From assembly GCF_001457595.1 (NCBI RefSeq), contig NZ_LN831039.1, forward strand, positions 4,950,001-4,982,000: a DNA stretch of 32,000 nucleotides, in the 5' to 3' direction. Both the position numbers and the translations under genes were made by a program. The notes beneath the pieces were generated by a model. The model saw only the letters and a program-made list of their open reading frames with translations. It made no database searches and was not told the DNA's origin. Source of the DNA: Mycolicibacterium smegmatis. Its GTDB lineage: Bacteria > Actinomycetota > Actinomycetes > Mycobacteriales > Mycobacteriaceae. This document shows positions 1,674 to 28,535 of this stretch, piece by piece; the first letter of the stretch is position 1, and every line of letters begins with the position of its first letter.

Positions 1674-2519
1674 ATGTCTGGACGGGTGGAAGGCAAGGTC
1701 GCATTCGTCACCGGCGCGGCCCGCGGCCAGGGCCGTAGTCACGCACTGCGGTTGGCGCAGGAAGGCGCCGACATCATCGCCATCGACATCTGCGGCCCCA
1801 TTCGCCCCGGCGCCGAAACCGCCATCCCGGCATCGACATCCGATGACCTTGCCGAGACCGCGAACCTGGTGAAGGGACTCGACCGCCGCGTCGTCACCGC
1901 GGAGGTGGACGTGCGCGACGCCGCGGCCATCAAGGCCGCTGTCGACAGCGGTGTCGAGCAGCTCGGCAGGCTCGACATCATCGTCGCCAACGCCGGCATC
2001 GGCAACGGCGGCGACACCCTCGACCAGACCTCCGAGGAGGACTGGGACGAGATGATCGACATCAATCTGTCCGGTGTCTGGAAGTCTGTGAAAGCCGGTG
2101 TCCCCCATATCGTCGCGGGCGGACGCGGCGGGTCGATCGTCCTGACCAGTTCGGTAGGCGGGCTGAAGGCCTATCCGCACTGCGGCAACTACGTGGCCGC
2201 CAAGCACGGCGTGGTGGGCCTCATGCGGGGCTTCGCAGTGGAACTCGGGCAGCACAACATCCGCGTCAACACCGTGCACCCGACGCACGTCGCCACCCCG
2301 ATGCTGCACAACGAGGGCACCTTCAAGATGTTCCGTCCCGACCTGGAGAACCCGGGCCCCGACGACATGGCCCCCATCTGCCAGATGTTCCACACGTTGC
2401 CCATCCCGTGGGTCGAGCCCATCGACATCAGCAACGCCGTGCTGTTCCTGGCCTCCGACGAGGCCCGTTACATCACGGGCGTGACGTTGCCGGTCGACGC
2501 GGGAAGCTGCCTCAAGTAG
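1674..2519 (+). CDS. Mycofactocin-coupled SDR family oxidoreductase (carveol dehydrogenase LimC-like)
   Basis: The N-terminus is GKVAFVTGAARGQGRSHALRLAQEGADIIAIDICGPI. The GAARGQGRSHA motif and the IAIDIC insertion are typical of the mycofactocin-associated SDR subfamily. YVAAK (YxxxK) is present. An AGAGG SD lies 8 nt upstream of the ATG. Confidence 0.85.
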   Translation: MSGRVEGKVAFVTGAARGQGRSHALRLAQEGADIIAIDICGPIRPGAETAIPASTSDDLAETANLVKGLDRRVVTAEVDVRDAAAIKAAVDSGVEQLGRLDIIVANAGIGNGGDTLDQTSEEDWDEMIDINLSGVWKSVKAGVPHIVAGGRGGSIVLTSSVGGLKAYPHCGNYVAAKHGVVGLMRGFAVELGQHNIRVNTVHPTHVATPMLHNEGTFKMFRPDLENPGPDDMAPICQMFHTLPIPWVEPIDISNAVLFLASDEARYITGVTLPVDAGSCLK

Positions 2520-2528
2520 GGCCGGTCC

Positions 2529-3329
2529 CTAGCCCGGCCCGAGCGTGGGGGCACCGGTCTGCGGGTGGTGATACCAGCCGCCCGCAGCCTGGGTGCCGCC
2601 ATCGACATGAAGGGTCTGGCCGGTGATGTAACTCGACATACCCGACGCCAGAAACACTGCCGCCCCGGCCATCTCATCGACATGGCCGGGGCGTTTCATG
2701 GGTATCGCATCCCCGCCGGGCTGTCGCCCACCGGACAGCGCCAGCAGACCGTCGGTGACGGTGAGATCGGGCGCGAGCGCGTTGACGCGGATGCCGTACG
2801 GCGCGAGCTCGAACGCCGCGGTGAGCGTGTAGTTGATCACGCCGGCCTTGGCCGCCGAGTACGCGGCGTAACGCGGCGCCGCGCGAACACCTTCGATCGA
2901 CGTGAGATTGATGATGCTGCCAGGCATCTCGGCCGCCACCATATCGCGGGCCACGCGCTGCGTGCACAGCAGCACATGGCGCAGATTCGCCTTGTACAGG
3001 GCATCCCAACCGTTCTCGGTCGTCTCCAACAGCGGTGACGCGAACACACCGCCTGCGTTGTTCACCAGGATGCTCACGGTCCCGAGTTCCGAGGTGGTCT
3101 GCGCCAGCGCGGCGTCCACCTGATCCGCATCCCGCACGTCGGTCACGATCCCCACACCCCCGACGGCCCGCGCTGCAGCCTCGCAGGTCTCAGGATCGCG
3201 CTCCCAGATCGCGACGCGGGCGCCGAAGGCCGCCAAACCCTCGGCGATGCCACGGCCGATCCCGGCCCCACCGCCGGTCACCACCGCCACACGACCGGTC
3301 AGCAGGATGTCAGATGGATTGATGGCCAT
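2529..3329 (-). CDS. SDR family oxidoreductase; last gene of the 9-gene operon
   Basis: Track ORF 2529-3347. Motifs: GRVAVVTGGGAGIGRGIA, NNAGG, YSAAK. ATG 3329 (MAINPSD...) gives a normal SDR N-terminus. GTG 3347 is an alternative start. Confidence 0.85.
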   Translation of the reverse strand: MAINPSDILLTGRVAVVTGGGAGIGRGIAEGLAAFGARVAIWERDPETCEAAARAVGGVGIVTDVRDADQVDAALAQTTSELGTVSILVNNAGGVFASPLLETTENGWDALYKANLRHVLLCTQRVARDMVAAEMPGSIINLTSIEGVRAAPRYAAYSAAKAGVINYTLTAAFELAPYGIRVNALAPDLTVTDGLLALSGGRQPGGDAIPMKRPGHVDEMAGAAVFLASGMSSYITGQTLHVDGGTQAAGGWYHHPQTGAPTLGPG

Positions 3330-3355
3330 GGCTTTCGAGCATCGCACGCCCTGAC

Positions 3356-5767
3356 TCAGCGCGTCACGCGTTTGGCGGCACCCGGTTCGGTCCCGATGAC
3401 CCCGTGCTCGGCCAGCGCCGTGATCTCGTCGTCACCGAGGCCGAGTTTGGCGAGCAACTCGTGGTTGTGCTCCCCCAGCAGCGGCGCGGGCCTGCGATGG
3501 AACTCCTTGGGTCCGTTGGCCAGTGAGACGGGCAGGGTGCTGTGCGCGGCGGCCGGGTTCACCGGGTGCCCGACGAACTCGAAGAACCGCCGGTGTCGCA
3601 ACTGCTCCAGCTCGAGCTGGCGGTGCGGCTGCATGACCTTGGCCACGGGTACACCGGCGGGCCACAGGGTCTCGACGATCTCGTCACCGCTACGTGGTGC
3701 GCACCAGGTGGCGAGCTCCTTGTCGATGCGGTCGTGGTGGGTTCGGCGACCCGTGTGGGTGGACAGCTCGGGATCCGACGCCCACTCCGGGTCGCCGATC
3801 ACACGACGCAGAGCCTCCCATTGCGCGTCGGTACCCACCGCGATCGCGACCCAGCTGTCGGGCCGGCCGAACTCGTCGATGTCGACCGTGCGGTACAACC
3901 CCTGCGGGGCCGCGGTGGGCCCGCGGTTGCCGTCGCGCTGCAACAACGCACCGTGAGCGGAGAACTCGATCACCTGCTCGGCGGCGATGTGCAGCGCCGC
4001 GTCGACCATGGCGGCCTCGATGAGCGTTCCCTGCCCGGTGCGCCGCCGGTGTTCGAGTGCGAGCAGCAGCGCGGTGAGCGCGTGGATGCCCGCGTTGGGG
4101 TCGCCCACCGAATAGGGCTCGAACGGTGTGCGGTCGCTGAACCCGGTGAGCCAGCTCAGGCCCGAGGCGTCTTCGATGATGTAGGCGAACGCGGGATTGT
4201 CGCGCCACGGCCCGTCGAGCCCGAAGCCCGGCATGCGCAGCATGATGATGTCGTCACGCAGGGCACGCACCGCGTCGTAGTCGAGCCCGATCTGGTCGAT
4301 GACGCGCGGCGTGAAGTTCTCCACCACCACATCCGACGTCGCGATCACGCGGCGCAACAGGTCCCGGCCCGGCTCGGTCTGGAAGTCGAGGGTGATGCCC
4401 AGCTTGTTGGTGTTGAGCGCGCTGAAGATCGGTGAGCGCTCCCACCACTGCTCCTCAGAGGCGGGGATGCCCGCGATCAGGCGGGTTCCGTCCGGGCGCA
4501 CCGTGGATTCGACGTGGATGACCTCGGCCCCGAGCATCCCGAGGATGTGCGTGCAGGACGGCCCGGCCCAGAACGTCGTCATGTCCAGCACGCGCAGACC
4601 CGAGAACGGCAGGCGGTCACGTGCGGGCGGACCGGCCGGGGCCGGGCGCGGCGCGCGTGTCGCGGCACGGACCGCGTCGGTGTGCGCGCCGAGTTTCGGT
4701 GCGGCCGTGGGCGGCCGCAGCGCCACGCCATCGAGCCGGTAGGGATGGTTGGGCGCGGTGAAACCGTCGGGGTGGTGCACGAAGCTGCCACGCTCGACGA
4801 AATGGTCCATGCGCGTGACGTTCTCGCCGTTGCCCACGGGTGAGTTCGGGATGCGGAACGCCGACGCGAGGTCACGCACGTCGTCGACGCGTTGTTCGCG
4901 CAGCCACGCGTAGAGTTCCTCGGCGTGCAGGTTGGCCTGCTCGGTGATGGTCAGTTCGGTGGTCTCGTCGATCCATTCGTCGTGGCCCGACATCGCGCAC
5001 AGGTCCCACCACTGCTGAGCGGTACCGCATCCCAGTGCCACCAGGCCGTCGGCCGCCTGCGCGACCCCGGGAACGGTGGGACGGCGCTCGGTGCGCCACG
5101 GCCTGCCGAGCATCTCGAAGTAGGTCACGGGATAGTACGTGAGGCCCAGGATCTGTGATTCGAGCTTCGACAGGTCGATCAGTTCCCCGTGGCCATCGCG
5201 GTGCCTGCGGGTGAGGAACGACAGCGTCATCGCCGCGGCGTAGGCACCTGTGAGCCATTCACCGACCTGCCCGCCGATCGTGACCGGCGCGCGGTCCTGC
5301 ACACCCCGGCCGATCCCGATGGCACCGCCGGACCAGGCCTGCAACGTGAACTCGGTGGCGGCCCGGTCGCACCACGGCCCGTCGAGACCGAACGGCGTGA
5401 TCGCGGTGACCACCAGATGCGGATACCGCTCGTACAGTTCGCGTGGCGAGACCTTCTGTGCCAACGCCGATTCCGGTGACCACACCACGGCGTCGGCCGA
5501 ACCCGCCAGCCGGTCCAGCAGGTCGAGACCGTCGTCGGGACCGATTACGACGCTGCGCTTGCCACCCGCCAGGAAGCTGAACAGCGCACCGTGGCGGCCG
5601 GGTTCGATCGCCGCGCCCGAGGCCGACCACCGCCGCAGCGGATCACCGTCGGGCGCCTCGACCTTCACGACGTCGGCGCCGCCGTCGGCGATGAGCTTGG
5701 TGGCATATCCCCCGGCGATGCCGCTCGTGAGGTCGAGGACGGTGTAGCCCTCAAGCGGTGCAGTCAT
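3356..5767 (-). CDS. Fused two-domain family III CoA-transferase (CaiB/BaiF family), 803 aa
   Basis: The track ORF 3356-6379 is over-extended. The ATG at 5767 (MTAPLEGYTVLDLTSGIAGGYATKLIADGGADVVKVE) lies 5 nt after the upstream stop. A second copy of the family signature, LSGLRVLDMTTFWAGPSCTHILGMLGAEVIHVE, begins about residue 415 after a Pro/Ala-rich linker (RAPRPAPAGPPARDR). Confidence 0.85.
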   Translation of the reverse strand: MTAPLEGYTVLDLTSGIAGGYATKLIADGGADVVKVEAPDGDPLRRWSASGAAIEPGRHGALFSFLAGGKRSVVIGPDDGLDLLDRLAGSADAVVWSPESALAQKVSPRELYERYPHLVVTAITPFGLDGPWCDRAATEFTLQAWSGGAIGIGRGVQDRAPVTIGGQVGEWLTGAYAAAMTLSFLTRRHRDGHGELIDLSKLESQILGLTYYPVTYFEMLGRPWRTERRPTVPGVAQAADGLVALGCGTAQQWWDLCAMSGHDEWIDETTELTITEQANLHAEELYAWLREQRVDDVRDLASAFRIPNSPVGNGENVTRMDHFVERGSFVHHPDGFTAPNHPYRLDGVALRPPTAAPKLGAHTDAVRAATRAPRPAPAGPPARDRLPFSGLRVLDMTTFWAGPSCTHILGMLGAEVIHVESTVRPDGTRLIAGIPASEEQWWERSPIFSALNTNKLGITLDFQTEPGRDLLRRVIATSDVVVENFTPRVIDQIGLDYDAVRALRDDIIMLRMPGFGLDGPWRDNPAFAYIIEDASGLSWLTGFSDRTPFEPYSVGDPNAGIHALTALLLALEHRRRTGQGTLIEAAMVDAALHIAAEQVIEFSAHGALLQRDGNRGPTAAPQGLYRTVDIDEFGRPDSWVAIAVGTDAQWEALRRVIGDPEWASDPELSTHTGRRTHHDRIDKELATWCAPRSGDEIVETLWPAGVPVAKVMQPHRQLELEQLRHRRFFEFVGHPVNPAAAHSTLPVSLANGPKEFHRRPAPLLGEHNHELLAKLGLGDDEITALAEHGVIGTEPGAAKRVTR

Positions 5768-5772
5768 GGGTG

Positions 5773-6729
5773 TCAGGGTTTCGCCCGGTTCTTCTTGGAG
5801 AGGCGGAACTCGGGTGGGAACCTGCTGTCGTTGTCGTTCACCGCGGCAGACAGTCCCGAGTCGATCGACTCGAACATGTCGAGGTCGTCGTCGCTGTCGT
5901 TGGCGACGCCGTTGCCCATGGACTCGAAGAACGCGCTCAGCAGGCTGCCCATGTACTCGCCCTGCTGTTGTTTGAAGATCTCGAAGAACATCTTCTGCTG
6001 GAACACGGTGTCCACGGGGCGGTTCCGCGCACACGCCGTGGCGTACTTGTCCACCTCGGCCTCGAGCCGGTCGCGCGGCACGACCTTGTTGAGGAAGTTG
6101 CAGTCGTACATCTCGGCGGCCGTGAACGGGCGGCCGGTGAAGACCATCTCCTGGAACTTGCGCAGCCCCATCATCTGCACCCACGTCCACATGCGCGGAC
6201 CCCAGCCGTGGTAGCGGAACGACGGATGCCCGAACAGCGCGTCGTCGCTGGAGATCACGAGATCGGCGTCGGCGCATTGGTAGAAGTGCCAGCCGTAGCA
6301 GTAGCCCTTGGCCTCGACGATGCTGATCTTCTTGAAGTCCTGCAGCGCGCGGTTGCCGGCCTGCGAGTTGGCGTACCACGCCGAGATCGTGGCGCCGTTG
6401 CGGAACGTGCCCCGGGGCGGATACGTGACCTCGCCTACGCCGTCGTCCTCCAGGCGCAGTTCGGCCAGGCGCACCGCGGGATTGTCATTGCCTTCCATGA
6501 ACTCCGGCAGATCGGCGCCGCTGCCCAGGTTGTCCCCCACCCCGCGGATGACGACGACCTTGACGTCGTTGTCGGCGTTGGCCGCGCGCAGCACGTCGGC
6601 GTACCGCAACCGGGCCATCGACGTGGGCGCGTTGAGGAACTCGGGCCGGTTGAACGTGATGGTCGCGATCTTGGTCTCGGGATCCTTGTCGTAGAGGATG
6701 ATCTCCTCCGGCGTCGGCCGCTCAGCCAT
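5773..6729 (-). CDS. Atypical crotonase-fold protein (enoyl-CoA hydratase/isomerase family), 318 aa
   Basis: Crotonase signatures IATITFNRPEFLNA and VVVIRGVGDNLGSGADL are present. The second motif reads GYCYGWHFYQCADADLVISSDDALFGHPSF instead of G-x-A-x-GGG-x-E-L...P-E. The start ATG overlaps the upstream stop by 8 nt (ATGGCTGA). Confidence 0.8.
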   Translation of the reverse strand: MAERPTPEEIILYDKDPETKIATITFNRPEFLNAPTSMARLRYADVLRAANADNDVKVVVIRGVGDNLGSGADLPEFMEGNDNPAVRLAELRLEDDGVGEVTYPPRGTFRNGATISAWYANSQAGNRALQDFKKISIVEAKGYCYGWHFYQCADADLVISSDDALFGHPSFRYHGWGPRMWTWVQMMGLRKFQEMVFTGRPFTAAEMYDCNFLNKVVPRDRLEAEVDKYATACARNRPVDTVFQQKMFFEIFKQQQGEYMGSLLSAFFESMGNGVANDSDDDLDMFESIDSGLSAAVNDNDSRFPPEFRLSKKNRAKP

Positions 6730-7855
6730 GGACAGCCTCTCCGTATACCGGGACGGTGGTCAGCACGTCGGGACCGTCGGCGCCGATGACGACGGCGTCG
6801 CGCGTGAACACCGCACCGATGCCGGCCTCCCACACGTAACTGGTGACGGCGAGCACCATGCCCTCCTCGAAACGTTCGCCGTCGGCCGTGGCCCGCAGGG
6901 CCGGTGACACCACGGGCGGGTCGAAACCCAACCCGAGGCCGTGCGCGACGGGCATCGCGGGCAGCGGTTCACCCGCCTGCTCGTAGGCGTCGAGCAGCGC
7001 GCTGGTGGGCCTGCCGGGGCGGCACGCGCCGGCGAGCCTGTCCCACAGGTCATCCCGTCGCCGGTACAGCGCCCGGACGGCGTCGTTCGGCTCACCCGCG
7101 TACAGCGTGCGCGCGACCTCGGCGACGTAGCCGTCGGCCAGCACACCGGCCGAGAGCGCCACCAGGTCCCCGTCACGCACCCGGCCGTCGCCCCCGGCGC
7201 GGCGCCACGGATGCTCCTTGGAGGTGACCCACGCCGCGTCCTGCGTCGCCGGTGTGCTGACGCCGCCTGCGGCCTCGGCTTCGAGGATCGCGCCGGAGAG
7301 CGCCTGCTCGCTGGTACCCGCGTGGACACCTGCGACACCGGCAGCCAGTCCCTTCTCGGCGATCGACAGCGCCCACCGCAGCGCCTCGATCTCCTCGGGC
7401 GTCTTGATGCGGCGGGCATCGCGCATGGCCTGCTCGCCGTCGACGAGTTCGGCCTGCGGGAACGCCATGGGCAGCAGCTTGGCGAATGTCGGTGTCAGGG
7501 CGTCGGTTCCGACGCGGCGCGCGGTCGCGGTGCCCTTGATGTTCTGCAGCACCCCGATGAGCGTCATGGGGTTCCAGGCCAGGCCGTAGAGGTTCTCGTG
7601 CGGGATCTCCTCGGGGATGCCCTCGTCCCATGTGCTGTTGAGGTGGATCTCACCCGTCTCGCGTACGTAGGTGCAGATGGGCCCGAACGGACGGGTTCCG
7701 ACAACCCACAGTTGCGGTGCGCCCGAGATGTAGCGGACGTTGGCCTGCCTGCCGAGCACCAGCACATCGAGGTCGTAGGCCTCCATCTGTGCCAGCGCGC
7801 GTTCGCGCCGGCTCACGCGCAGCGCCCGGTTGTCGGCCTCGATGTCAATTCCCAC
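6722..7855 (-). CDS. M24 (creatinase/prolidase fold) family protein with a degenerate metal-binding site
   Basis: The creatinase_N-like N-terminus is RRERALAQMEAYDLDVLVLG. The pita-bread domain reads GDLVALSAGVLADGYVAEVARTL, AHGLGLGF and GMVLAVTSYVWE. By-eye alignment puts S and E at the two Asp ligand positions, and T at one Glu ligand position. The GTG start at 7855 overlaps the upstream stop by 11 nt. Confidence 0.75.
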   Translation of the reverse strand: MGIDIEADNRALRVSRRERALAQMEAYDLDVLVLGRQANVRYISGAPQLWVVGTRPFGPICTYVRETGEIHLNSTWDEGIPEEIPHENLYGLAWNPMTLIGVLQNIKGTATARRVGTDALTPTFAKLLPMAFPQAELVDGEQAMRDARRIKTPEEIEALRWALSIAEKGLAAGVAGVHAGTSEQALSGAILEAEAAGGVSTPATQDAAWVTSKEHPWRRAGGDGRVRDGDLVALSAGVLADGYVAEVARTLYAGEPNDAVRALYRRRDDLWDRLAGACRPGRPTSALLDAYEQAGEPLPAMPVAHGLGLGFDPPVVSPALRATADGERFEEGMVLAVTSYVWEAGIGAVFTRDAVVIGADGPDVLTTVPVYGEAVHG

Positions 7856-9122
7856 TGGACACCTCGTAGGGGTCGTACGGATAAGCGGTCAACGGCATCC
7901 AGCCACCCTCGGTGACCACCACGATCTCCTCGCCGCGGTAACCACCCGTGCCGTCCTCCCACACCACGGGTTCGAACACCAGCAGCATGCCGTCGGGGAA
8001 CACGAAGTTGTCGTCCCACTCCTGGCCCAGATCGGTTCCGATCATGGGCATCTCGGCCGCGCTGGTGCCGATGCCGTGGCCCAGGTAGAAGTGCGGCAGC
8101 CACGGTTTCTGCCCACCGGCGGCCTTCGTGGCCGCACGCCCCAGGTCGCCGCACGTGGCACCGGCCTTCGTCACCGACAGCACGGCGTCGACGATCTCAC
8201 GCCACCTGTCGAACTGGCGCTGCTGCGCGGGCGTGGGATCCTGCCCCACTATCCAGGTGCGGCCGTGGTCGGAGCAGTAACCGTGGTAGGCGATCGACAC
8301 GTCGGTCCACAACACGTCGCCGTGGCGCAGTTCGCGTTCGGTGGTCAGCAGCGGCAGCGCGAGATCACCGTGCGTGGTCCACGTGCCGTCGGCGCGCGAG
8401 GCGGGCATGACCTGCCAGATCGAGTCGAACATGTTGGTGGTCGCGCCGAGTTCGAAGGAACGGCGGACGAATTCGGCCGACAGGTCGATCTGGCGCACGC
8501 CGGGTGCCACCGACTTCTGGATGTCGGCGACGGCCTGCTCGGTGATCTGGGTGGCCCGGCGCAGCGCCGAGATCTGGTCCACGGTCTTGACGATCTTGGC
8601 CGCGCCGATGGTCGCCGCCGCGTCGACGGGCGCCTGCGGGAACAGCGCGGTGCCCGCGCGGCGCATCGCGCCGGTGAGTTCGTCGACCGCGATGGTGGCC
8701 CCGGCACGCACCAGGCCGGCCAGGATCTTGCCGAACTGCTCGACGCCCTCGTCGAATTCGAGGTAGACGGGCCCGTGCAGGTGGTCGTCGGGCACCCCTG
8801 ACTCCATGGCCGCACCTTCGCGGAACGGCAGGTACAGGTGCGGGTGCTCGTCGTCGGCGAGGACGACGGCCACGGGTCGTTCGACGTGCGACAGTCCGGC
8901 GTCGGCGAGCGGCCAGCTAATCCCGGTCGCGTACATCACGTTGCTGTTGCCCAGCAGGACGAGCGCGTCGACACCCTGCTCGGACATCGCCGTGTGCAGC
9001 CGCGCCGACACGTCCCGCCGCAACCGCGCGAAGTCCGGTTCGGCCGGGATGTCGAGCCACCTCAGCCCGGTGCGGGCGATCTGGGTGACGCCGCTGTGGG
9101 TGAATGTCGTCGCTGGAGTCAC
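7845..9122 (-). CDS. M24 family metallohydrolase (Xaa-Pro peptidase/creatinase-like) with an intact metal-ligand set
   Basis: The track ORF 7845-9437 is over-extended. GTG 9122 forms a GTGA overlap with the amidohydrolase stop. Ligand motifs: GDVLWTDVSIAYHGYCSDHGRTW (D, D+11), YLGHGIG (H), LLVFEPVVW (E), GYRGEEIVVVT (E). Confidence 0.8.
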   Translation of the reverse strand: MTPATTFTHSGVTQIARTGLRWLDIPAEPDFARLRRDVSARLHTAMSEQGVDALVLLGNSNVMYATGISWPLADAGLSHVERPVAVVLADDEHPHLYLPFREGAAMESGVPDDHLHGPVYLEFDEGVEQFGKILAGLVRAGATIAVDELTGAMRRAGTALFPQAPVDAAATIGAAKIVKTVDQISALRRATQITEQAVADIQKSVAPGVRQIDLSAEFVRRSFELGATTNMFDSIWQVMPASRADGTWTTHGDLALPLLTTERELRHGDVLWTDVSIAYHGYCSDHGRTWIVGQDPTPAQQRQFDRWREIVDAVLSVTKAGATCGDLGRAATKAAGGQKPWLPHFYLGHGIGTSAAEMPMIGTDLGQEWDDNFVFPDGMLLVFEPVVWEDGTGGYRGEEIVVVTEGGWMPLTAYPYDPYEVSSGN

Positions 9123-10291
9123 TGCAGCCCCAGGAACTTCTGGATGTTGGTGCTCACGATCTTCACGGCGTTCTCCGGGCCGACCGCGTCGACCACGGTG
9201 GCCAGCGACTTCTCCGAGTATCCGAACGTGGACTCGTTGTGCGGGTAGTCGCTTGACCACATGACGTTGTCGACGCCGATGTCGTCGATGAGCCGCAGGC
9301 CCAGCGGGTCGACCATGAACGACGCACACATGTGCTTGTCCCAGTAGTGCCGGATGTCGTGCTGCAGTTCGTGGTTGAACATGTGCCGGTAGGAGGCCAA
9401 CATGTGCTCGGCGTCCTGCAGTGCCGTGGGCACCCACGCGATGCCGCCTTCGAACCAGCCGATCTTGAGCTCGGGATGGCGGTCGAGGATGCCGGAGAAC
9501 ACGTACTTGGCGAACTGCTCGCGGAACGAGTCGACGTTGACCATCATGCCCACCACGACGCTGTTGTTCTCACACGGCGTTTTGGGTGGGGTCTCCCCGA
9601 TGTGATGGCTGACCGGGATGCCCGACGCCTCGATCTCGTCCCACACGGCATCCATCGCGGTGCTGCCGTAGTCGTAGATGTTGCCCTCGTCGTCCTTACC
9701 GGGATTCAGCGGAAGCAAAAACGTCCGCAGGCCAAGGGATTTGAGCTGCTCGAGCGTGCTGCGCGTACCCGACGGATCCCACCAGTTGATCAGGCCGACG
9801 CCGTAGAAGTGGCCCTTGGACTCCTCCTGCAGGGCCGCGATGTGCTCGTTGTAGATGCGGAACACGCGCTCGCGGATGGCCTTGTCCGGGTAATGGAACA
9901 AGGCGAGTACAGCATTCGGGAACGCGAGTTCCTTGTCGATGCCGTCCTCTTTGAGTTCCCGCACGCGCGCGCTGATGTTGTTGGACGCGGCGCCGGCCAG
10001 ATCGTCGTACTGCATGAGCACGCGGCCGAAGTCACCTCCGGTCCACGCCTTGCCCTTCATGCCGACCATGTACGCGCCGTCCTCGTACCAGATGCGCGGC
10101 GCGGCGCCTTTGAGTTCCTCGGGGAACCGGTCGTAGAAGATGTCGTCGGCAACCGAGATGTGGTTGTCGGCCGAGAAGACCTCGGTGCCCTTGGGGAGGC
10201 TGGACAGTCCGTCCGGCGACGCGTGGCCTCTGCGGTGTTTGGGAGCGCCGAAACCTTCGGGCGGATAGAGGGTTTGAGTGGCGACGGACAT
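9119..10291 (-). CDS. Amidohydrolase_2 (ACMSD/LigW/LigI-type) family protein
   Basis: 390-aa ORF. The N-terminal FSADNHIS sits where the family's metal-binding motif lies. The C-terminal VMWSSDYPHNES is typical of the family. A GGAG SD lies 9 nt upstream of ATG 10291. Confidence 0.75.
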   Translation of the reverse strand: MSVATQTLYPPEGFGAPKHRRGHASPDGLSSLPKGTEVFSADNHISVADDIFYDRFPEELKGAAPRIWYEDGAYMVGMKGKAWTGGDFGRVLMQYDDLAGAASNNISARVRELKEDGIDKELAFPNAVLALFHYPDKAIRERVFRIYNEHIAALQEESKGHFYGVGLINWWDPSGTRSTLEQLKSLGLRTFLLPLNPGKDDEGNIYDYGSTAMDAVWDEIEASGIPVSHHIGETPPKTPCENNSVVVGMMVNVDSFREQFAKYVFSGILDRHPELKIGWFEGGIAWVPTALQDAEHMLASYRHMFNHELQHDIRHYWDKHMCASFMVDPLGLRLIDDIGVDNVMWSSDYPHNESTFGYSEKSLATVVDAVGPENAVKIVSTNIQKFLGLQ

Positions 10292-10330
10292 CAGGGTGAC
10301 TCCAATCTGACTGGTGGGAGGCGTCGCGGA

Positions 10331-11563
10331 TCACCAGGCGACGGGAAGTTCGTACACGCCGTAGGCGAGCCGGTCGTGCTTGAACGGCACTTCCTCGAGC
10401 GGGATCGCCAGGCGCAGCGTCGGGATGCGGCGCAGCAGGGTGTGGAACACGATCTGCAGTTCGGCGCGCGCGAGCTGCTGGCCCACGCACTGGTGCCTGC
10501 CGTAACCGAAGCCGAGCTGCTGCCCGGCGTCGCGGGTCAGGTCCAGCTTGTCGGGCTCGGGGAACGCCTTGGCATCCCAGTTGGCCGGCACCAGGTCGAT
10601 GATGATGCCCTCGCCGGCCTTGATGGTCTCGCCGCCGATCTCGATGTCCTCGACCGCCACGCGGCGCTGCCCGGTCTGGATGATCGACAGGTAGCGCATG
10701 AGTTCCTCGACCGCGTTGGCGATCACCTTCGGATCCTCGGCATTGCGCAGGAAGTCGGCCTGTTCGGGATTTTCCAGCAGCGCGAGGATGCCGATGCCGA
10801 TCATGTTGGCCGTGGTCTCGTGCCCGGCGATCAGCAGGCCCGTGCCCAGCTGGGCGGCCTCCTTGACGCTGAGTTCACCGGCCGTGACGCGCTCGGCCAG
10901 ATCGGATACGGCGTCCTCGGCGGGCTCGGCCTGCTTCTTCTCGATCAGGTCGATCAGATACTGGTGCAGGCTCATCGCGCCCTTCTGCATGGCATCCGCG
11001 GCGGCGTAGCGGGCCAGGCCTGCGTTGGCGTGCTCCTGGAAGAACTCGTGGTCCTCGTATGGGACGCCGAGCATCTCGCTGATCACGACCGTGGGCACCG
11101 GCAGCGCGAGCTTGTCGACGATGTCCGCCGGCTGCGGTCCGGCGAGGATCGCGTCGATGCACTCGTCGGTGATCTTCTGGATGGCCGGACGCAGTCCCTC
11201 GACGCGCCGGAACGTGAACGGCTTGGACAGCATCCGGCGAAACCGGGTGTGCTCCTCGGCATCCGAGGTGAACACCGACCGCGGCCGCTTGTGCACCGTG
11301 GCCAGCATGTGCTCGTTCCAGTGTGGGAAGCCCGGACGACGGTCGTCCACGCTCACCCGGGAGTCGGCGAACAACGCCCGGGCCTCCTCGTGGCCGGTGA
11401 TGAGCCACGGCGTGCTGCCGTCCCAGATCCGCACGCGGGACAGGCCTTTGGCCTTGTTCATGTCCAGCATCTGTGGCGGCGGCGCGAACGGGCACGCGGC
11501 CGCGCGCTCCATGGGGTATCCGGGGATGTCGGTAGCGCTGGGCTGCGTCAGGGTCTCGGACAT
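10331..11563 (-). CDS. Cytochrome P450 (class I, bacterial)
   Basis: The track ORF 10331-11872 is over-extended. ATG 11563 (MSETLTQPS...) has an AGAGGAA SD. Motifs: I-helix AGHETT, ExxR (VEELMRY), and heme-thiolate loop FGYGRHQCVGQQLA. Confidence 0.9.
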   Translation of the reverse strand: MSETLTQPSATDIPGYPMERAAACPFAPPPQMLDMNKAKGLSRVRIWDGSTPWLITGHEEARALFADSRVSVDDRRPGFPHWNEHMLATVHKRPRSVFTSDAEEHTRFRRMLSKPFTFRRVEGLRPAIQKITDECIDAILAGPQPADIVDKLALPVPTVVISEMLGVPYEDHEFFQEHANAGLARYAAADAMQKGAMSLHQYLIDLIEKKQAEPAEDAVSDLAERVTAGELSVKEAAQLGTGLLIAGHETTANMIGIGILALLENPEQADFLRNAEDPKVIANAVEELMRYLSIIQTGQRRVAVEDIEIGGETIKAGEGIIIDLVPANWDAKAFPEPDKLDLTRDAGQQLGFGYGRHQCVGQQLARAELQIVFHTLLRRIPTLRLAIPLEEVPFKHDRLAYGVYELPVAW

Positions 11564-11595
11564 GTGTCGGTGTGTTCCTCTGGGATCGGTCTGTG

Positions 11596-11790
11596 TCAGT
11601 CGTGGATCTCGATGGCCAGGGCCGGGCAGGCCGCCGCTGCGCGACGCGCGTTGTCCTCCTGGTCGGGGTCGGGGCTGTCGTCGAGCAGCTCCACGACGCC
11701 GTCGTCGTCGCGCTGGTCGAACACCTCGCCCGCGTTGAGCACGCACTGTCCCGACGAGACGCACCTGTCCTGGTCGACGGAAACCTTCAC
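11596..11790 (-). CDS. Small [3Fe-4S]-type ferredoxin; presumptive P450 redox partner
   Basis: 64 aa. Contains CVSSGQC...CP(ALAI), the CxxGxC...CP pattern of actinobacterial single-cluster ferredoxins. A GGAGGAG SD precedes the GTG start. The gene is 32 nt upstream of the P450. Confidence 0.85.
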   Translation of the reverse strand: MKVSVDQDRCVSSGQCVLNAGEVFDQRDDDGVVELLDDSPDPDQEDNARRAAAACPALAIEIHD

Positions 11791-11793
11791 TGC

Positions 11794-12486
11794 TTACTCG
11801 TCTCCTCCGGTGACCGGCGCCAACCACAGGCCCACGATCGCGTCGATCAGGCCCGACGCCGCGCCCTGCCATGACGAACGCGCAACGGGTGCACTCTGGG
11901 CGAGGGCGCGTTCGCGGTCGGCGCAGCTGTGCATCAACAGGTTGCGCGCCATGATGTTTCGTTCGGCCCGGATCTCGGCGGGCAGCTCCGGCAGGCAGCT
12001 GTTCATTCCCTCGACGACCTGCACCAGCGACGGCGAGCTGAGGGCGTCACGCACCACGATGTCGTGGTAGGCCGGGTCGGTCATCACCTGCGCCGCGAAC
12101 CGCGCGTACCAGGTCGGGTTGCCAAGTGCGGCAAGGTGATCGGTCAGCGGGCGTACGAGGCAGCCGACCCAGCCACGCAGGTCGGTCGAGCCCTGCACCG
12201 AGTCGATCATCTGCTCACGCAGGTATTCGATCGGGCCGCGGTGCTTGTGCTCGATCGCGCGCACCAGGTCGGTCTTGGTGCCGAAGTGGTATCCCACCGC
12301 GGCGTTGTTGCCCTGCCCGGCAGCCTCGCTGACCTGGCGGTTGGACACCGCGAACACGCCGTGTTCGGCATAGAGCCGTTCGGCGGCCTTGAGGATGGCC
12401 TCTTGTGTGCTGCTGGCCCGGTCGGCCCGAGCCGACCGACTCGCTGTCCGGCTGGCTGTGGTCACCAGTCCAGTGAACCGGGTCAC
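11794..12486 (-). CDS. TetR/AcrR family transcriptional regulator; first gene of the P450 operon
   Basis: The HTH region is QEAILKAAERLYAEHGVFAVSNRQVSEAAGQGNNAAVGYHFGTKTDLVRAI. GTG start at 12486. The stop is 3 nt before the ferredoxin start. Confidence 0.85.
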   Translation of the reverse strand: MTRFTGLVTTASRTASRSARADRASSTQEAILKAAERLYAEHGVFAVSNRQVSEAAGQGNNAAVGYHFGTKTDLVRAIEHKHRGPIEYLREQMIDSVQGSTDLRGWVGCLVRPLTDHLAALGNPTWYARFAAQVMTDPAYHDIVVRDALSSPSLVQVVEGMNSCLPELPAEIRAERNIMARNLLMHSCADRERALAQSAPVARSSWQGAASGLIDAIVGLWLAPVTGGDE

Positions 12487-12493
12487 ATGCTTT

Positions 12494-12511
12494 AAGTCAA
12501 GCGATTGAATT
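12494..12511. promoter_or_regulatory. Imperfect 18-bp palindrome AAGTCAAGCGATTGAATT (14/18 self-complementary); candidate operator of the adjacent TetR
   Basis: Read from the sequence. It begins 8 nt upstream of the tetR GTG in the 110-bp gap between two co-directional operons. The core is TCAA-N4-TTGA. Confidence 0.35.
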
Positions 12512-12596
12512 ATCTGAGCCCCCTTTCAAGCCCGCCGGCACTACGGTTGTTGGCGGCAAAACGGCGTTTGCGCGCCAAGATGCGTAGTCTCGGCGG

Positions 12597-13403
12597 TCAG
12601 TTCTTCTCTTTGCGGACGATCACCTTTCCCGCCACCGTCCCACCGTCGATGGGCAGGACCGTGCCGGTGACGTAGCGCGACCGGTCGGTGGCGAAGTACA
12701 GCGCGGCCTCGGCGACATCCTCGACCGTGCCTTCGCGTTTGAGCGGCCGGTCGGCCCGCATCTGGGCCCGGATGTTGGCCTCGAACTCCTCGATGCGTTG
12801 CCGGTCCTCCTCCGACGCGGATTTCGCCACGATCGCCGTGCGGATGTTGCCGGGTGCGATCGCGTTGACCCGGATCTCGTGATGCGCGAGCTCGATCGCG
12901 GCCGACTTGGTGAACTGGATGACCGCGGCCTTGGAGGCGCGGTAGGTCATCACGCCGCCGCCGGCCTGGATACCGCCGATCGAGGTGAGGTTGAGGATCG
13001 AACCGCCCCCGTTCTCGGCCATGTATCGGGCCGCCTCCCGCGTGCCCGCCATGACACCCAGCACGTTGACGCCCATGACCTTGTGGAAGTCGGCCAGGTC
13101 GTCGTCGAGGAAACGCCGGTGCATGGTGCCCGAGACGCCGGCGTTGTTGACCATGACGTGCAGTCCGCCGAAGCGTTCGACGCCGGCCGACACCAGCGCG
13201 GCGACCTGCTCCTGGTCTGCCACGTCGGTCGTGAGGAATTCGGTGTGCGCGCCGAGTTCCTCGGCGAGTGCGGTGCCGCGGTCCTTGTCGACGTCGCCGA
13301 TCATCACCTGCGCTCCCTCGGCGACGAACCGGCGGACCAGTCCCTCACCGAGCCCGGATGCGCCTCCGGTGACAACCGCCACCCGCCCGGCCAATTCGCT
13401 CAT
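12597..13403 (-). CDS. Classical SDR family oxidoreductase
   Basis: The track ORF 12597-13676 is over-extended. ATG 13403 (MSELAGRVAVVTGGASGLGEG) forms an ATGA overlap with the upstream stop. NNAG and YRASK are present. Confidence 0.85.
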   Translation of the reverse strand: MSELAGRVAVVTGGASGLGEGLVRRFVAEGAQVMIGDVDKDRGTALAEELGAHTEFLTTDVADQEQVAALVSAGVERFGGLHVMVNNAGVSGTMHRRFLDDDLADFHKVMGVNVLGVMAGTREAARYMAENGGGSILNLTSIGGIQAGGGVMTYRASKAAVIQFTKSAAIELAHHEIRVNAIAPGNIRTAIVAKSASEEDRQRIEEFEANIRAQMRADRPLKREGTVEDVAEAALYFATDRSRYVTGTVLPIDGGTVAGKVIVRKEKN

Positions 13404-14251
13404 GACACCTCTTTCAGGAAGTCCGACAGCAACCGGTTCACGGTGTCCGGTTGCTCGATCTGTGGGCAGTGCCCCGCGTCGGCGACGACGGTGCTTGTGG
13501 CTCCGCTGATCTGGGCCGCGATCTGTGCGGCCCACCCCGACGGCAGCAGCTTGTCCCGCTCCCCCTCGACGATCAGCACAGGTACGCCGATGCGCTCGTA
13601 GGCGCGGGCACTCGACGGCGCGGCGGGCGGTTCCAGACCCGGCCGACGGAACCTGGCCGCAGCCAGTGCCTCCCACGCTCCCGGCGCGATGCTCGACTCG
13701 TAGCGTCGGCGCACGTAGTCCTCGTCGGCCGGGTACGACGGATCGGCGAACAGCGCCGCCACGATGCGCCGCATGCCCTCCAAGGTCGCGTCGTAGTCGT
13801 ACAACGCAGCCATGTGCTCGTTGCGCTGGATCTCGCCGCCACCACAGATCGCCACGAGCGAGCGCACCGGCAGCAGTGGCGCATCCGAGGTGGTGTCGAC
13901 CAGCAGGTTGATCGCGCCCATCGAGTTGCCCACGAAATGCGCCGATTTCACGCCCATTTGGGCACAGAACCGCGCGATGTGCCGGATCCGCATGCCGCGG
14001 CCGTCGGTGAAGTCGACGACCTTGGCGCTGCCGCCGAACCCCAGCATGTCCGGGGCCAGCACGTGGTGGTCGGTAGCGAGCGCACCGATGGTGCGTTCCC
14101 AGCCGAGCTCGGCGCTGACCCCGAACTCGCCGCCGTGCAGCAGCACCACCGCATCACGTGCCGGGTCCCCGGCCTCCAGGTAGGCGGTGGTCAACCCGTC
14201 GACGACGATGGTCTTACGTTCGAAGTCCACAGCCACATCTGGCTCGTTCAC
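13400..14251 (-). CDS. Alpha/beta hydrolase, meta-cleavage-product (C-C bond) hydrolase-like (BphD/HsaD/MhpC type)
   Basis: The track ORF 13400-14866 is over-extended. GTG 14251 forms a GTGA overlap with the cyclase stop. Motifs: VVLLHGGEFG, nucleophile elbow GNSMGA, and C-terminal GHCPQIEQP. Confidence 0.8.
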   Translation of the reverse strand: MNEPDVAVDFERKTIVVDGLTTAYLEAGDPARDAVVLLHGGEFGVSAELGWERTIGALATDHHVLAPDMLGFGGSAKVVDFTDGRGMRIRHIARFCAQMGVKSAHFVGNSMGAINLLVDTTSDAPLLPVRSLVAICGGGEIQRNEHMAALYDYDATLEGMRRIVAALFADPSYPADEDYVRRRYESSIAPGAWEALAAARFRRPGLEPPAAPSSARAYERIGVPVLIVEGERDKLLPSGWAAQIAAQISGATSTVVADAGHCPQIEQPDTVNRLLSDFLKEVS

Positions 14252-15246
14252 TTGATCGCGATCGGGTTGACCGGTGACCCCACGGCCCCGGTGACCCGCA
14301 ACGGCGGTGCGATGAGCTGGAATTCGTACACACCGTCGGCGGCGCAGTCGGCCGACAGCGCGGTGAGATCCCAGTACTCGCCGAGCATCAGGCCCATGTC
14401 GCGCAGGCACAGCATGTGCATCGGCAAGAACGTGCCCTCCACACCCGATGCCGGGTCGGGATCCTCGACCATGAGGTTGTCGGCGGCCACGGCCGCGACC
14501 TCGTGATCGTGCAGCCATGAGGCACACCGCCAGTCCAGACCGGATCCGGGTTCGGCCCCGTCGCCGGCGGACAGGAACCGTGTCCACCATCCGGTGTGCA
14601 CGACGACGATGTCCCCGCGCCTGATTTGCACGCCCTGTGCCGCGGCCACGGCGTCGAGTTCCTGTGGCGTGACGGGGTTTCCGGGTTCGAGGAACACCTC
14701 GGCGCCGCGGTGGCGCACGACGTCGAGCAGAACACCGCGGCTCGTGATGCCCTTGACGTCGACCTTGTCGATGCTGCAGTGGAACGCGCCGAAACTCGTG
14801 ACCGAATCGGCCGGGAAGCCGTTGTACAACCGGTCCTCGTAGTAGACGTGCGACAGCGCATCCCACTGCGTGGCCGCCTGCAACGGCATCACGATCATGT
14901 CGTCGTTGAACCGGAACGGGTTGTCCACGAAGAACTCACTGACCTGGTGCGCCACCGAGTTCAGCAACCACTGCGGCCCGTATTTGGTCAGGGTCGCGGC
15001 GTCGCCGCCGTCGACGGTCATCACGTGGGTGGGGTTCTGCCGGAACTGGAACGCGCCCTGCGGGCCCGCCGAGCCGAAGTCGGCACCGAGGGCGAACACC
15101 TTGCCCTGTTTCACCAGGGACGCGGCCTCGGCGACCTTGTCGGCCGTGATGAAGTTCAGCGTCCCCAGTTCGTCGGCCTCGCCCCACCGTCCCCAGTTGC
15201 AGACGTCGTGGGCGACGCGGCGGAAGTCCGTCATACTCGCGGGCAT
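14248..15246 (-). CDS. Cyclase family protein (kynurenine formamidase-like fold)
   Basis: 332 aa. The N-terminal CNWGRWGEADELGTLNFIT and the core ATQWDALSHVYY align by eye with the family H-x-G-T-H-x-D-x-P-x-H region. The ATG directly abuts the upstream stop (TGAATG). Confidence 0.7.
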   Translation of the reverse strand: MPASMTDFRRVAHDVCNWGRWGEADELGTLNFITADKVAEAASLVKQGKVFALGADFGSAGPQGAFQFRQNPTHVMTVDGGDAATLTKYGPQWLLNSVAHQVSEFFVDNPFRFNDDMIVMPLQAATQWDALSHVYYEDRLYNGFPADSVTSFGAFHCSIDKVDVKGITSRGVLLDVVRHRGAEVFLEPGNPVTPQELDAVAAAQGVQIRRGDIVVVHTGWWTRFLSAGDGAEPGSGLDWRCASWLHDHEVAAVAADNLMVEDPDPASGVEGTFLPMHMLCLRDMGLMLGEYWDLTALSADCAADGVYEFQLIAPPLRVTGAVGSPVNPIAIK

Positions 15247-16083: not shown

Positions 16084-16086
16084 CGC

Positions 16087-17397: not shown

Positions 17398-17411
17398 ACT
17401 CTTGCTTCCTC

Positions 17412-21755: not shown

Positions 21756-21759
21756 GCCC

Positions 21760-22668: not shown

Positions 22669-22689
22669 GGTCCCCTCTCCTGACGACCG

Positions 22690-22704
22690 GAGAATCATAT
22701 TCTC
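22690..22704. promoter_or_regulatory. Perfect palindrome GAGAAT-CAT-ATTCTC, 21 nt upstream of the mhpC start; candidate operator
   Basis: Read from the sequence. It lies between the AT-rich promoter region and the mhpC SD. Confidence 0.65.
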
Positions 22705-22737
22705 TTTTTCTGTAAGCACTTTGCTCAGTTATCGCAC

Positions 22738-22769: not shown

Positions 22770-22798
22770 CGCGGTTCTATCTGTCAAGGAGGGACGCG

Positions 22799-23524: not shown

Positions 23525-23538
23525 AAGGTCTTGCACAC

Positions 23539-28531: not shown

Positions 28532-28535
28532 TCGG

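Follow-up and report, generated by a model that had tools for sequence, protein, structure and literature searches.

A conserved operon of Mycolicibacterium smegmatis that joins a predicted amidohydrolase-related dinuclear oxygenase and a live/dead M24 pair to a CYP105Q cytochrome P450 and CoA-thioester enzymes

We analysed a 32,000-nt stretch of Mycolicibacterium smegmatis DNA (the window, whose numbering is used for the coordinates below unless a locus numbering is named), in which nine minus-strand open reading frames (ORFs) lie across positions 2529-12486 (Table 1). In the order of transcription, they encode a TetR-family regulator, a ferredoxin, a cytochrome P450, a PF04909 protein that databases label as an amidohydrolase and that we predict to be an amidohydrolase-related dinuclear oxygenase (ARO), two M24-family proteins (M24A and M24B), a crotonase-fold protein, a fused double family-III CoA-transferase and a classical short-chain dehydrogenase/reductase (SDR). 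An earlier note on this DNA had described nine co-directional genes, which our gene map confirms, and recomputation of the junctions returned figures identical to those it gave (+3, +32, +39, -4, -11, -8, +5 and +26 nt, with start codons picked as that note implied). The domain families it had named for all nine proteins were each recovered with Pfam, and the same nine genes are called in public assemblies, which include a 7.06-Mb chromosome and several others. Cluster members that share at least 90% identity belong to M. smegmatis and M. goodii. Only 3 nt separate the TetR gene from the ferredoxin gene, the start of M24A overlaps the stop codon of the ARO gene (GTGA), and M24A and M24B overlap by 11 nt. 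A scan that is weak evidence in mycobacteria found no consensus promoter or intrinsic terminator inside the block. In an NCBIfam profile search, none of the nine proteins reached the curated cut-off of a named enzyme.

Table 1. The nine genes and the neighbouring features, on the numbering of the window.
Feature	Coordinates	Strand	Basis
TetR-family regulator, first gene	11794-12486	-	TetR_N + TetR_C_30
Ferredoxin (Fdx), 64 aa, single-cluster	11596-11790	-	Fer4_15/Fer4_13
Cytochrome P450, CYP105Q orthologue	10331-11563	-	Pfam P450 + homology to CYP105Q4
PF04909 protein, predicted ARO (database label "amidohydrolase")	9119-10291	-	Amidohydro_2 + motifs
M24A, presumed catalytic subunit	7845-9122	-	Creatinase_N + Peptidase_M24
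M24B (M24' of the earlier note), degenerate paralogue	6722-7855	-	Creatinase_N + Peptidase_M24
Crotonase-fold protein, 318 aa	5773-6729	-	ECH_1
Fused double family-III CoA-transferase, 803 aa	3356-5767	-	two CoA_transf_3 stretches
Classical SDR, last gene, least conserved	2529-3329	-	adh_short
Convergent mycofactocin-coupled SDR	1674-2519	+	TIGR03971, 392.8 bits vs cut-off 300
Candidate TetR operator/promoter, imperfect 22-bp palindrome ATAATTCAATCGCTTGACTTAA	12492-12513	-	ends 5 nt upstream of TetR GTG start
Conserved long imperfect hairpin, upstream SDR gene to TetR gene	12532-12596	-	32-nt inverted arms
Upstream six-gene block	12597-19199	-	gene calls, Pfam, NCBIfam

The earlier note had proposed neighbourhood conservation as a check, and we scanned one genome per species with an M24A alignment that included distant relatives, which returned about 600 or more matches. 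The synteny counts refer to the best 80 of these, which represent 80 loci from 80 species, all Mycobacteriaceae; an orthologue is a match of at least 55% identity by tblastn of the window proteins, and the denominators are the assessable loci. An M24B orthologue adjoins M24A at each of the 73 loci. Orthologues of the ARO (71/74), the P450 (70/74), the TetR regulator (70/73), the ferredoxin (63/74), the crotonase (65/71) and the double CoA-transferase (59/69) were found, and the terminal SDR has one at only 31 of 68. Nearly all of these orthologues have the order and strand seen in the window, and gene order is thus kept across Mycobacteriaceae species. In M. mantenii and other species resembling the M. 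avium complex (MAC), the block is rearranged with its functional set kept; the M. mantenii order is TetR-P450-SDR-ARO-M24A-M24B, followed by an insert and then by SDR-crotonase-double CoA-transferase on the opposite strand. Based on the orthologue counts and the rearranged loci, we take the conserved core to be ARO-M24A-M24B with the P450 and TetR genes. The CoA-transferase and crotonase are nearly as constant as this core, and the terminal SDR is optional. Spacing and synteny together support the description in the earlier note of one tightly packed, conserved unit with its own TetR gene at the head, and they suggest that the nine genes are transcribed as a single unit. Environmental species carry the operon, as do M. 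marinum and M. ulcerans, and no recognisable orthologue of the M24 pair is known to us among the M24 genes of M. tuberculosis. A megablast search of the whole block against plasmids gave two short, weak matches only. The insert that splits the cluster after M24B in MAC-like species consists of DUF222 (13E12-repeat/HNH-type) and sigma-70/SnoaL fusion genes, and in the M. mantenii locus examined it occupies locus coordinates 12391-14927.

The fourth protein matches PF04909 with E = 1.1e-18 (68.5 bits, cut-off 26.4), and its best PDB matches are PtmU3 (1.3e-25) and DitZ (2.3e-22), which are the founding members of the ARO family (PMC13154177). This family is defined by an N-terminal D-x-H motif and, after at least about 200 residues, a C-terminal D-x-P-H-x-D/E motif, neither of which occurs in characterised PF04909 hydrolases or decarboxylases (PMC13154177). 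AROs oxygenate their substrates with O2 at a dinuclear Fe/Mn cofactor. The M. smegmatis protein carries both. Its D42-N43-H44 aligns with D-S-H of PtmU3 and D-D-H of DitZ, with the D and H kept in 110/111 sequences, and its D348-Y-P-H-N-E353 has D, P, H and E in 111/111. The remaining ligands, H230 and E281, align with the 'sihig' and 'aeag' segments of PtmU3 and are invariant; the full set of seven (D42, H44, H230, E281, D348, H351 and E353) is invariant in 110-111 orthologues that span 37-93% identity. The diiron, or 'high-potential', subclass of AROs has a hydrophilic gamma1, a hydrophobic gamma2 and a non-aromatic gamma4 residue (PMC13154177). Here gamma1 is Asn, which is hydrophilic (104/111 sequences). 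We predict from these residues that the PF04909 protein is an ARO of the diiron type, in which case the operon encodes two oxygenases rather than one. The earlier note had counted two kinds of hydrolase in the operon, which is wrong for this protein given its ARO motifs and metal ligands. That note had also singled out D-N-H in place of the usual H-x-H; the residues are indeed there, and they are no oddity, because D-x-H is a hallmark of the ARO family. A LigW/ACMSD-type decarboxylase and a LigI/LigJ hydrolase were each considered and rejected, given the ARO motifs and decarboxylase matches of 1e-6 or weaker. The M. avium protein studied by the ARO authors (PDB 4dzi) is not this ARO (E = 2.6e-4).

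PtmU3 is a beta-hydroxylase of diterpenoid biosynthesis that takes CoA-ligated substrates (PMC7782822). Its pathway makes platensimycin and platencin, and DitZ, also a diterpenoid hydroxylase, belongs to abietane catabolism. Like PtmU3 and DitZ, the ARO of this operon has a PF04909 TIM barrel with both motifs, a terminal Glu as in PtmU3, a hydrophilic residue in the middle of D-x-H (Asn here, Ser in PtmU3, Asp in DitZ) that marks the diiron class, and a placement in a pathway that makes CoA thioesters. In contrast, its identity to the two enzymes is only about 25-27%, and it is the orthologue of neither; its partner genes also differ, since an M24 pair and a double CoA-transferase belong to this operon, and a 3Fe-4S ferredoxin gene lies inside it. 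A second comparison is AibH1H2, the 2-aminoisobutyrate hydroxylase of Rhodococcus, in which a catalytic subunit is likewise joined by a degenerate paralogue within an ARO-containing catabolic operon. However, AibH1H2 duplicates the ARO, whereas this operon has a single ARO and a duplicated M24 protein, one copy of which is degenerate. Homologues of the ARO with 36-37% identity are carried on the Sphingomonas plasmid pJE1 and a Tardibacter plasmid, both without M24 genes, and the Tardibacter homologue is an isolated gene between insertion sequence (IS) elements. On pJE1, a mobilizable plasmid of Sphingomonas sp. JE1, the 36%-identical ARO is part of a P450-EthD-SDR-ARO unit (locus coordinates 9413-13149) in the company of thiolase, CoA-ligase, CaiB-type transferase, FAD-oxidoreductase and TonB-receptor genes.

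M24A and M24B each have a Creatinase_N domain and the pita-bread fold, and they differ at the metal site. M24A has the ligands D274, D285, H349, E384 and E398, and all five are present in 161/161 sequences that span 44-100% identity. At the same positions, M24B has S235, E246, H305, T338 and R352; among 142 M24B sequences these columns hold mostly S/A, E, H/R, T and R, and the canonical set occurs in none. The positions were placed with what we take to be the sequence of E. coli methionine aminopeptidase (MetAP), which agrees with an alignment to the prolidase of P. furiosus. Because M24B lacks the ligand set, it is not to be filed as a metallopeptidase, and the second hydrolase that the earlier note had seen in M24' is more aptly described as a degenerate partner of M24A. 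We infer that the two proteins assemble into a heteromer, with one active site between them.

With its Creatinase_N domain, pita-bread fold and full Asp-Asp-His-Glu-Glu site, M24A resembles prolidase/aminopeptidase P, creatinase, DoeA and DddP, and its D-x-G-R-T motif resembles D-I-T-R-T of prolidase. A model of M24A (predicted local distance difference test score, pLDDT, of 87) reaches template-modelling (TM) scores of up to 0.76-0.83 to M24 structures, with 0.76 to DddP, 0.73 to the ectoine hydrolase DoeA/EutD, 0.72 to creatinase and 0.65-0.71 to prolidases, and this superposition does not discriminate between functions. The best curated-profile match of M24A is MetAP-I, at 72 bits against a cut-off of 171, and the scores for PepQ (50 against 630), DddP (48 against 600) and DoeA (40 against 613) also lie below their cut-offs. 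Assignment of M24A as DddP or DoeA was rejected on these scores, which are far under both cut-offs. Other features separate it from the known M24 enzymes. The known prolidase, creatinase, DoeA and DddP enzymes are homo-oligomers, whereas M24A is always paired with a ligand-less paralogue; the genes beside it are always those of oxygenases and acyl-CoA metabolism, not those of peptide or osmolyte use; and the substrate-binding His that follows the metal His in prolidase is, by eye, Ala in M24A. The M24A family is narrow, with 157 representatives (50% identity clusters) at E <=1e-30, many of them fragments. Our literature searches found no description of a live/dead M24 pair fixed beside oxygenases.

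The M24 pair recurs beyond the Mycobacteriaceae. A metagenome scan found 32 loci of a distant clade, with 44-57% identity to M24A, in nearly all of which M24B-like similarity follows M24A. Among the 13 distant loci having at least 6 kb of flank, 9 contain an ORF with ARO or P450 motifs within 7 kb, and BLAST added more; similarly, short contigs that encode M24A relatives of 45-48% identity have M24B next and a P450 or ARO-like ORF before. The distant loci were mapped by tblastn, motif scans and precomputed gene calls, as calling based on GC3 was too noisy at 70-76% GC. The clade members that carry a name belong to the Acidimicrobiia (Aquihabitans, Dermatobacter and metagenome-assembled genomes of Acidimicrobiales). 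In two complete Acidimicrobiia genomes, M24A-M24B-P450 overlap by 4 nt and are surrounded by genes for two PF04909 proteins, of which one is ARO-like, for as many as three acyl-CoA ligases, for acyl-CoA dehydrogenases of the alpha/beta and fused kinds, and for a MaoC-like protein, SDRs and a GMC oxidoreductase. Because of this recurrence, the M24 pair is tied to oxygenases and acyl-CoA metabolism in two classes of Actinomycetota. The live/dead arrangement may represent new chemistry for the M24 fold. In Aquihabitans sp., a gene for a 766-aa sulfatase stands directly after M24A-M24B-P450 (locus coordinates 13701-16001); it is not present in Dermatobacter, and it hints at a sulfated substrate in the Aquihabitans lineage.

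The P450 aligns with CYP105Q4 of M. marinum (PDB 8swl) over its full length of 410 aa with about 79% identity (697 bits), and its heme (FGYGRHQCVG), I-helix (AGHET) and ExxR motifs are intact. Identity above 55% to a named P450 indicates the same subfamily, and the identity, together with the intact heme-thiolate, I-helix and ExxR motifs, places the protein in CYP105Q. The ferredoxin carries the motif CVSSGQC...CP (CxxSxxC...CP), of which C10, S13, C16 and C55 are invariant in 41 sequences. Its length of 64 aa, its position adjoining a P450 gene and the Ser found in 41/41 sequences identify it as Fdx9-type. In M. marinum, the Fdx9(Ser) ferredoxin, which is about 63 aa long and has a CxxSxxC motif, is paired with CYP105Q4, and the study of that pair lists no M. 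tuberculosis counterpart of Fdx9 (PMC6237146). The M. marinum pair (Mmar_4763 region) has a ferredoxin of the same length and motif directly upstream of the P450, with no substantive difference from the pair here, and the two pairs are evidently orthologous by sequence. In the same study, CYP105Q4, which is termed an orphan, showed no spin-state shift with an extensive panel of conventional P450 substrates (PMC6237146), and a later paper still calls its function unresolved and names GfsF as structurally similar. The lack of a spin shift fits an unusual substrate, for example one that is CoA-bound. As far as the accessible text goes, the published work treats the CYP105Q4/Fdx9 pair alone, and the downstream ARO, M24, crotonase and CoA-transferase genes are undiscussed (PMC6237146). 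We presume that the ferredoxin passes electrons to the P450 and, possibly, to the ARO too. The earlier note had reported that a ferredoxin reductase is missing, and we identified none among the genes annotated across the window; its view that hydroxylation by P450 and ferredoxin is joined here to CoA-thioester chemistry also agrees with the family assignments.

The crotonase-fold protein (ECH_1, 71 bits) retains the fold and the oxyanion-hole motif, in which GSGADL is invariant. At the positions of the two hydratase glutamates, which we mapped by hand from what we take to be the motifs around rat Glu144 and Glu164, it has Y150 (90/90 sequences) and S170 (82/90; Ser or Ala); other invariant residues are G146-W147-H148, H168 and GSGxDL. 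Because both catalytic glutamates are absent, the protein is not a hydratase, and it is a candidate C-C cleaving or decarboxylating enzyme that would act on a CoA ester. The same combination of an oxyanion-hole motif without a two-Glu hydratase site is found in ring- or chain-cleaving crotonases such as BadI, EchA20, MenB, hydroxycinnamoyl-CoA hydratase-lyase (HCHL) and methylmalonyl-CoA decarboxylase. The operon crotonase has weak profile matches to HCHL, BadI and MenB, with equivalog scores far under the cut-offs, and reaches no NCBIfam cut-off; it differs from those enzymes in its invariant Y150, W147, H148 and H168 and in a C-terminal extension, and its nearest solved structures are uncharacterised structural-genomics entries.

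The CoA-transferase consists of two CoA_transf_3 stretches (E = 2e-161), whose halves are 26% identical to each other. D556 in VGDPNAG of the C-half aligns with LGDSNTG of YfdW, corresponds to the catalytic Asp169 of Frc/YfdW and is invariant in 81/81 sequences; the N-half has E170 at the catalytic position, with Glu in 51 orthologues and Asp in 29. The nearest match of the C-half is BbsF, a subunit of benzylsuccinate CoA-transferase (9fn0_B, 197 bits), and in BbsEF, as here, two different paralogous halves with the catalytic Asp kept form an interlocked unit. In contrast to BbsEF, the halves are fused in one 803-aa chain, and the N-half Glu or Asp at the catalytic position and the failure to reach any equivalog cut-off set the protein apart from BbsEF, Frc, CaiB and DddD. 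The tandem fusion itself resembles the architecture of DddD. Beyond the last gene of the operon lies the convergent SDR, which is present in 42/68 loci and in M. mantenii has a homologue at the head of the SDR-crotonase-double CoA-transferase unit, where it is arranged head-to-tail with those genes and the crotonase is a paralogous one. This SDR is probably part of the system. Its score above the TIGR03971 cut-off implies dependence on mycofactocin, which is encoded elsewhere, and the TIGR03971 subfamily includes carveol dehydrogenase.

Upstream of the TetR gene, the palindrome is the only strongly conserved stretch of the spacer across 41 species; in an alignment of the 41 orthologous upstream regions, a TTAAATCA...GCTTGACTTA block is at least 80% conserved and its flanks are not, and we regard the palindrome as a candidate TetR operator. 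It resembles, with two mismatches, what we take to be the KstR2 consensus; the regulator is not KstR2-like, and assignment as a KstR2 site was rejected, the resemblance being treated as coincidence. The TetR start is called variously across assemblies, giving proteins of 230, 234, 251 or 255 aa. The longer versions would include the palindrome within the gene, whereas the 230-aa start places it just upstream, which favours the short call and a leaderless or near-leaderless transcript. The hairpin farther upstream has a minimum free energy of -37 kcal/mol (z = -3.65), which was matched by 0/200 shuffles, and its arm sequences recur in many orthologous Mycolicibacterium loci. Without a U-tract, it is not a classical intrinsic terminator, and it may serve as a terminator or boundary element. 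Its position between the operon and the next six genes suggests that this upstream block is a separate transcript.

The upstream block encodes a KstD-like flavoprotein, a luciferase-like oxidoreductase, a PRK12428-type SDR, a PF04199 cyclase, an HsaD/PcaD-like alpha/beta hydrolase and an SDR. These genes occur in 36-59 of 67-71 loci and are syntenic in most fast-growing species, and the block is probably a separate transcription unit of the same pathway. The KstD-like flavoprotein scores 614 bits to 3-oxosteroid 1-dehydrogenase, which is below the cut-off, and belongs to PRK12835, which is related to 3-ketosteroid-1-dehydrogenases and cyclohexanone-carboxylate desaturases. Directly upstream of its gene, positions 19196-24345 encode an IclR regulator on the plus strand and, on the minus strand, an alpha/beta hydrolase, an FAD_binding_3 hydroxylase (563 aa) and a LigB-type extradiol dioxygenase (306 aa). 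These genes resemble mhpR-mhpC-mhpA-mhpB of 3-hydroxyphenylpropionate meta-cleavage, and the mhpR-C-A-B-like genes (19-24 kb) were rejected as part of the system because they look like a separate known module. On both flanks (minus strand 27764-31798 on one side; locus coordinates 19495-21278, past the low-coordinate end of the window, on the other), a full-length acyl-CoA dehydrogenase stands beside a truncated one that consists of the C-terminal domain only, as in alpha/beta-type pairs. A crotonase accompanies the pair on each flank, and an AMP-forming CoA ligase is encoded on one of them. In actinobacteria, alpha/beta acyl-CoA dehydrogenase pairs typically serve bulky substrates of the steroid type. 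A gene for a MeaB-type G-protein chaperone (PF03308) is found at about 25168-26050 (locus coordinates 3148-4032), and no gene for a B12-dependent mutase was seen near it within the annotated 20 kb.

We tentatively favour the reading that these genes form a TetR-controlled catabolic operon that degrades a bulky carboxylic acid (branched or alicyclic, and similar to a terpenoid or steroid) in the form of its CoA thioester. Each step of the scheme below is our extrapolation from the observed family identities, intact or degenerate active sites and conservation. An inducer would release TetR from the palindrome before its own gene, and the double family-III CoA-transferase would load the acid onto CoA from a donor thioester. 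CYP105Q and the diiron ARO would then hydroxylate unactivated C-H bonds, and the ARO, by analogy to PtmU3, could add oxygen where branching blocks ordinary beta-oxidation. The 3Fe-4S ferredoxin would feed the P450 and possibly the ARO, with a reductase encoded elsewhere, and the SDRs would oxidise the resulting alcohols. The crotonase, with its oxyanion hole and invariant Tyr, Trp and His, might carry out C-C cleavage of a retro-aldol or retro-Claisen type, or a decarboxylation, on the CoA ester. An M24A/M24B heteromer with a single dinuclear metal site would perform a hydrolytic or lyase step tightly coupled to the oxygenases. A bolder proposal is that the ARO, the M24A/M24B heteromer and usually a P450 constitute an unrecognised enzyme module, found from Mycobacteriaceae to Acidimicrobiia, in which M24 was recruited from peptide or osmolyte chemistry to act on a hydroxylated bulky acyl-CoA; we consider this doubtful.

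No characterised pathway matches this set of genes. Platensimycin A-ring cleavage, dit, steroid degradation, bbs and cai resemble it at the superfamily level only, and none has this combination; signature enzymes of such routes (DitA dioxygenase, KshA, HsaC, Ltp2, BbsG and CaiA/C) were not identified in the operon or its conserved flanks. The earlier note had recognised no characterised route, and none turned up in full-text literature searches that did return relevant papers; nor did those searches find a paper that assigns the operon a pathway or substrate or links its genes. What appears to be new is the module of an ARO and a live/dead M24 pair within a proposed CoA-dependent oxidative catabolic operon, and each protein comes from a known superfamily.

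The earlier note had speculated on an N-containing or carboxylated cyclic substrate. The genomic company, namely the KstD-like desaturase, the alpha/beta acyl-CoA dehydrogenase pairs, the carveol-dehydrogenase-type SDR and CYP105, points rather to a bulky alicyclic, terpenoid-like or steroid-like acyl-CoA, and the M24 pair would also allow an N-containing or conjugated substrate. Several points weigh against the degradation of a bulky acyl-CoA that we favour. We know of no M24 enzyme that acts on CoA esters or in terpenoid or steroid catabolism, and the non-peptidase M24 members act on small N- or S-containing zwitterions. The MAC-like slow growers have neither the ferredoxin gene nor an orthologous CoA-transferase, and with only about 25-27% identity to PtmU3 and DitZ, the CoA-ester specificity and beta-regiochemistry of those enzymes are not confidently transferable to this ARO. 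The steroid or terpenoid flavour also rests on guilt by association. Furthermore, Rieske ferredoxins are largely missing from the neighbourhoods of diiron-class AROs (PMC13154177), and since such AROs reportedly have no dedicated ferredoxin in most cases, the operon ferredoxin may serve only the P450. The main rival, which we judge possible though unlikely, is that the operon breaks down a small zwitterion that contains N, or else an amide conjugate; betaines, cyclic amidines or imino acids, N-acyl or prolyl amides and amino-acid conjugates of lipid or steroid acids are the candidates. In such a route, M24A/M24B would cleave C-N bonds, as creatinase and ectoine hydrolase do, or beta-eliminate, as DddP does, the P450 and ARO would be N- or O-dealkylating oxygenases, and the CoA-transferase and crotonase would work like CaiB and CaiD in carnitine metabolism. 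The M24A model does superpose slightly better on DddP, DoeA/EutD and creatinase than on prolidases, but M24A falls under every equivalog cut-off, those of DddP and DoeA included. The presence of a family-III CoA-transferase beside a crotonase is reminiscent of CaiB/CaiD, and the tandem arrangement of two CaiB units, as we understand it, resembles DddD; yet both the mycobacterial and the Acidimicrobiia neighbourhoods are rich in bulky acyl-CoA genes, and no osmolyte-type transporter or deaminase was seen among the neighbouring genes examined. Some AROs take small polar substrates, such as AibH2 (2-aminoisobutyrate) and SfbO (N-dealkylation) (PMC10811679; PMC7782822), whereas the nearest relatives of this ARO are diterpenoid enzymes and not AibH2 or SfbO. 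Likewise, no usual hydrophobic substrate was bound by CYP105Q4, which would suit this rival, although CYP105 relatives act on terpenoids, macrolides and steroids.

The other explanations fare less well, and among them the biosynthetic and chance readings are weak. A narrower form of the reading we favour is an accessory sterol route for the C24-alkyl-branched side chains of phytosterols or ergosterol, or for another blocked carbon, and we consider it unlikely. The KstD-like flavoprotein and the alpha/beta acyl-CoA dehydrogenase pairs of the flanks agree with it, as do the GMC oxidoreductase, MaoC-like hydratase, fused acyl-CoA dehydrogenase and sulfatase that the Acidimicrobiia clusters add, and the upstream luciferase-like oxidoreductase and hydrolase could process a ketone left after cleavage. 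The species distribution, in environmental mycobacteria, M. marinum and M. ulcerans, also fits, together with the lack, to our knowledge, of a recognisable M24-pair orthologue in M. tuberculosis and of an Fdx9 counterpart listed for that species in PMC6237146. However, KshA, HsaA, HsaC, Ltp2 and Mce4 were not identified in any locus examined, the regulator is not recognisably KstR or KstR2, and the FAD protein belongs to the separate PRK12835 subfamily, which is also like cyclohexanecarboxylate desaturases; the case for sterols is drawn entirely from neighbours. The operon might instead be a cassette that tailors or makes a secondary metabolite or a lipid of the cell envelope and is not catabolic, with precedents in PtmU3 (platensimycin) and in CYP105-type enzymes such as GfsF (macrolide). 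The closest characterised relatives of both the ARO (PtmU3) and the P450 (PDB 5y1i, 467 bits; GfsF is the enzyme named as structurally similar to CYP105Q4) work in biosynthesis, and among approximately 17,000 AROs, about 1,600 lie within predicted biosynthetic clusters (PMC13154177). We nevertheless regard this explanation as quite improbable: no polyketide synthase, nonribosomal peptide synthetase, terpene synthase or glycosyltransferase was identified among the annotated genes of the window or the related loci examined, the flanks hold beta-oxidation-type, meta-cleavage and dehydrogenase genes, a TetR gene that heads its own operon is typical of inducible catabolism or efflux, and dozens of saprophytic species each carry one conserved copy of the operon. 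We give next to no probability to a chance adjacency of the nine genes, or to several independent units with unrelated functions. The terminal SDR and ferredoxin are dispensable in many species, as such a view would allow, but three junctions overlap and the other five gaps are at most 39 nt, and synteny already contradicts it, with the order kept in 59-73 of about 70 species. The functional set also survives the M. mantenii rearrangement, and in another class of Actinomycetota the M24A-M24B core is again accompanied by a P450, an ARO-like gene or both.

These results give an orphan P450 whose structure is solved, and an enzyme from a newly recognised oxygenase superfamily, a common and testable setting in a model mycobacterium. 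About 17,000 AROs are annotated as hydrolases, substrates are known for only a handful of AROs, and because this one is widespread in mycobacteria and present in the tractable M. smegmatis, it offers a convenient entry to ARO physiology. For CYP105Q4, which has been purified, crystallised and screened, the operon context suggests that earlier screens perhaps used the wrong molecules, namely free hydrophobic compounds rather than CoA-bound or conjugated ones. If the proposed module is real, it could, for example, cleave at the quaternary or tertiary carbon that blocks beta-oxidation in terpenoid acids or C24-branched sterol side chains; a reaction of this class would be new to M24 and would solve the blocked-carbon problem in a new way. 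Furthermore, should the operon act on a plant terpenoid, a resin acid or a compound of the phytosterol type, it would account for part of the carbon use that sets environmental mycobacteria apart from M. tuberculosis, in which no orthologue is recognisable.

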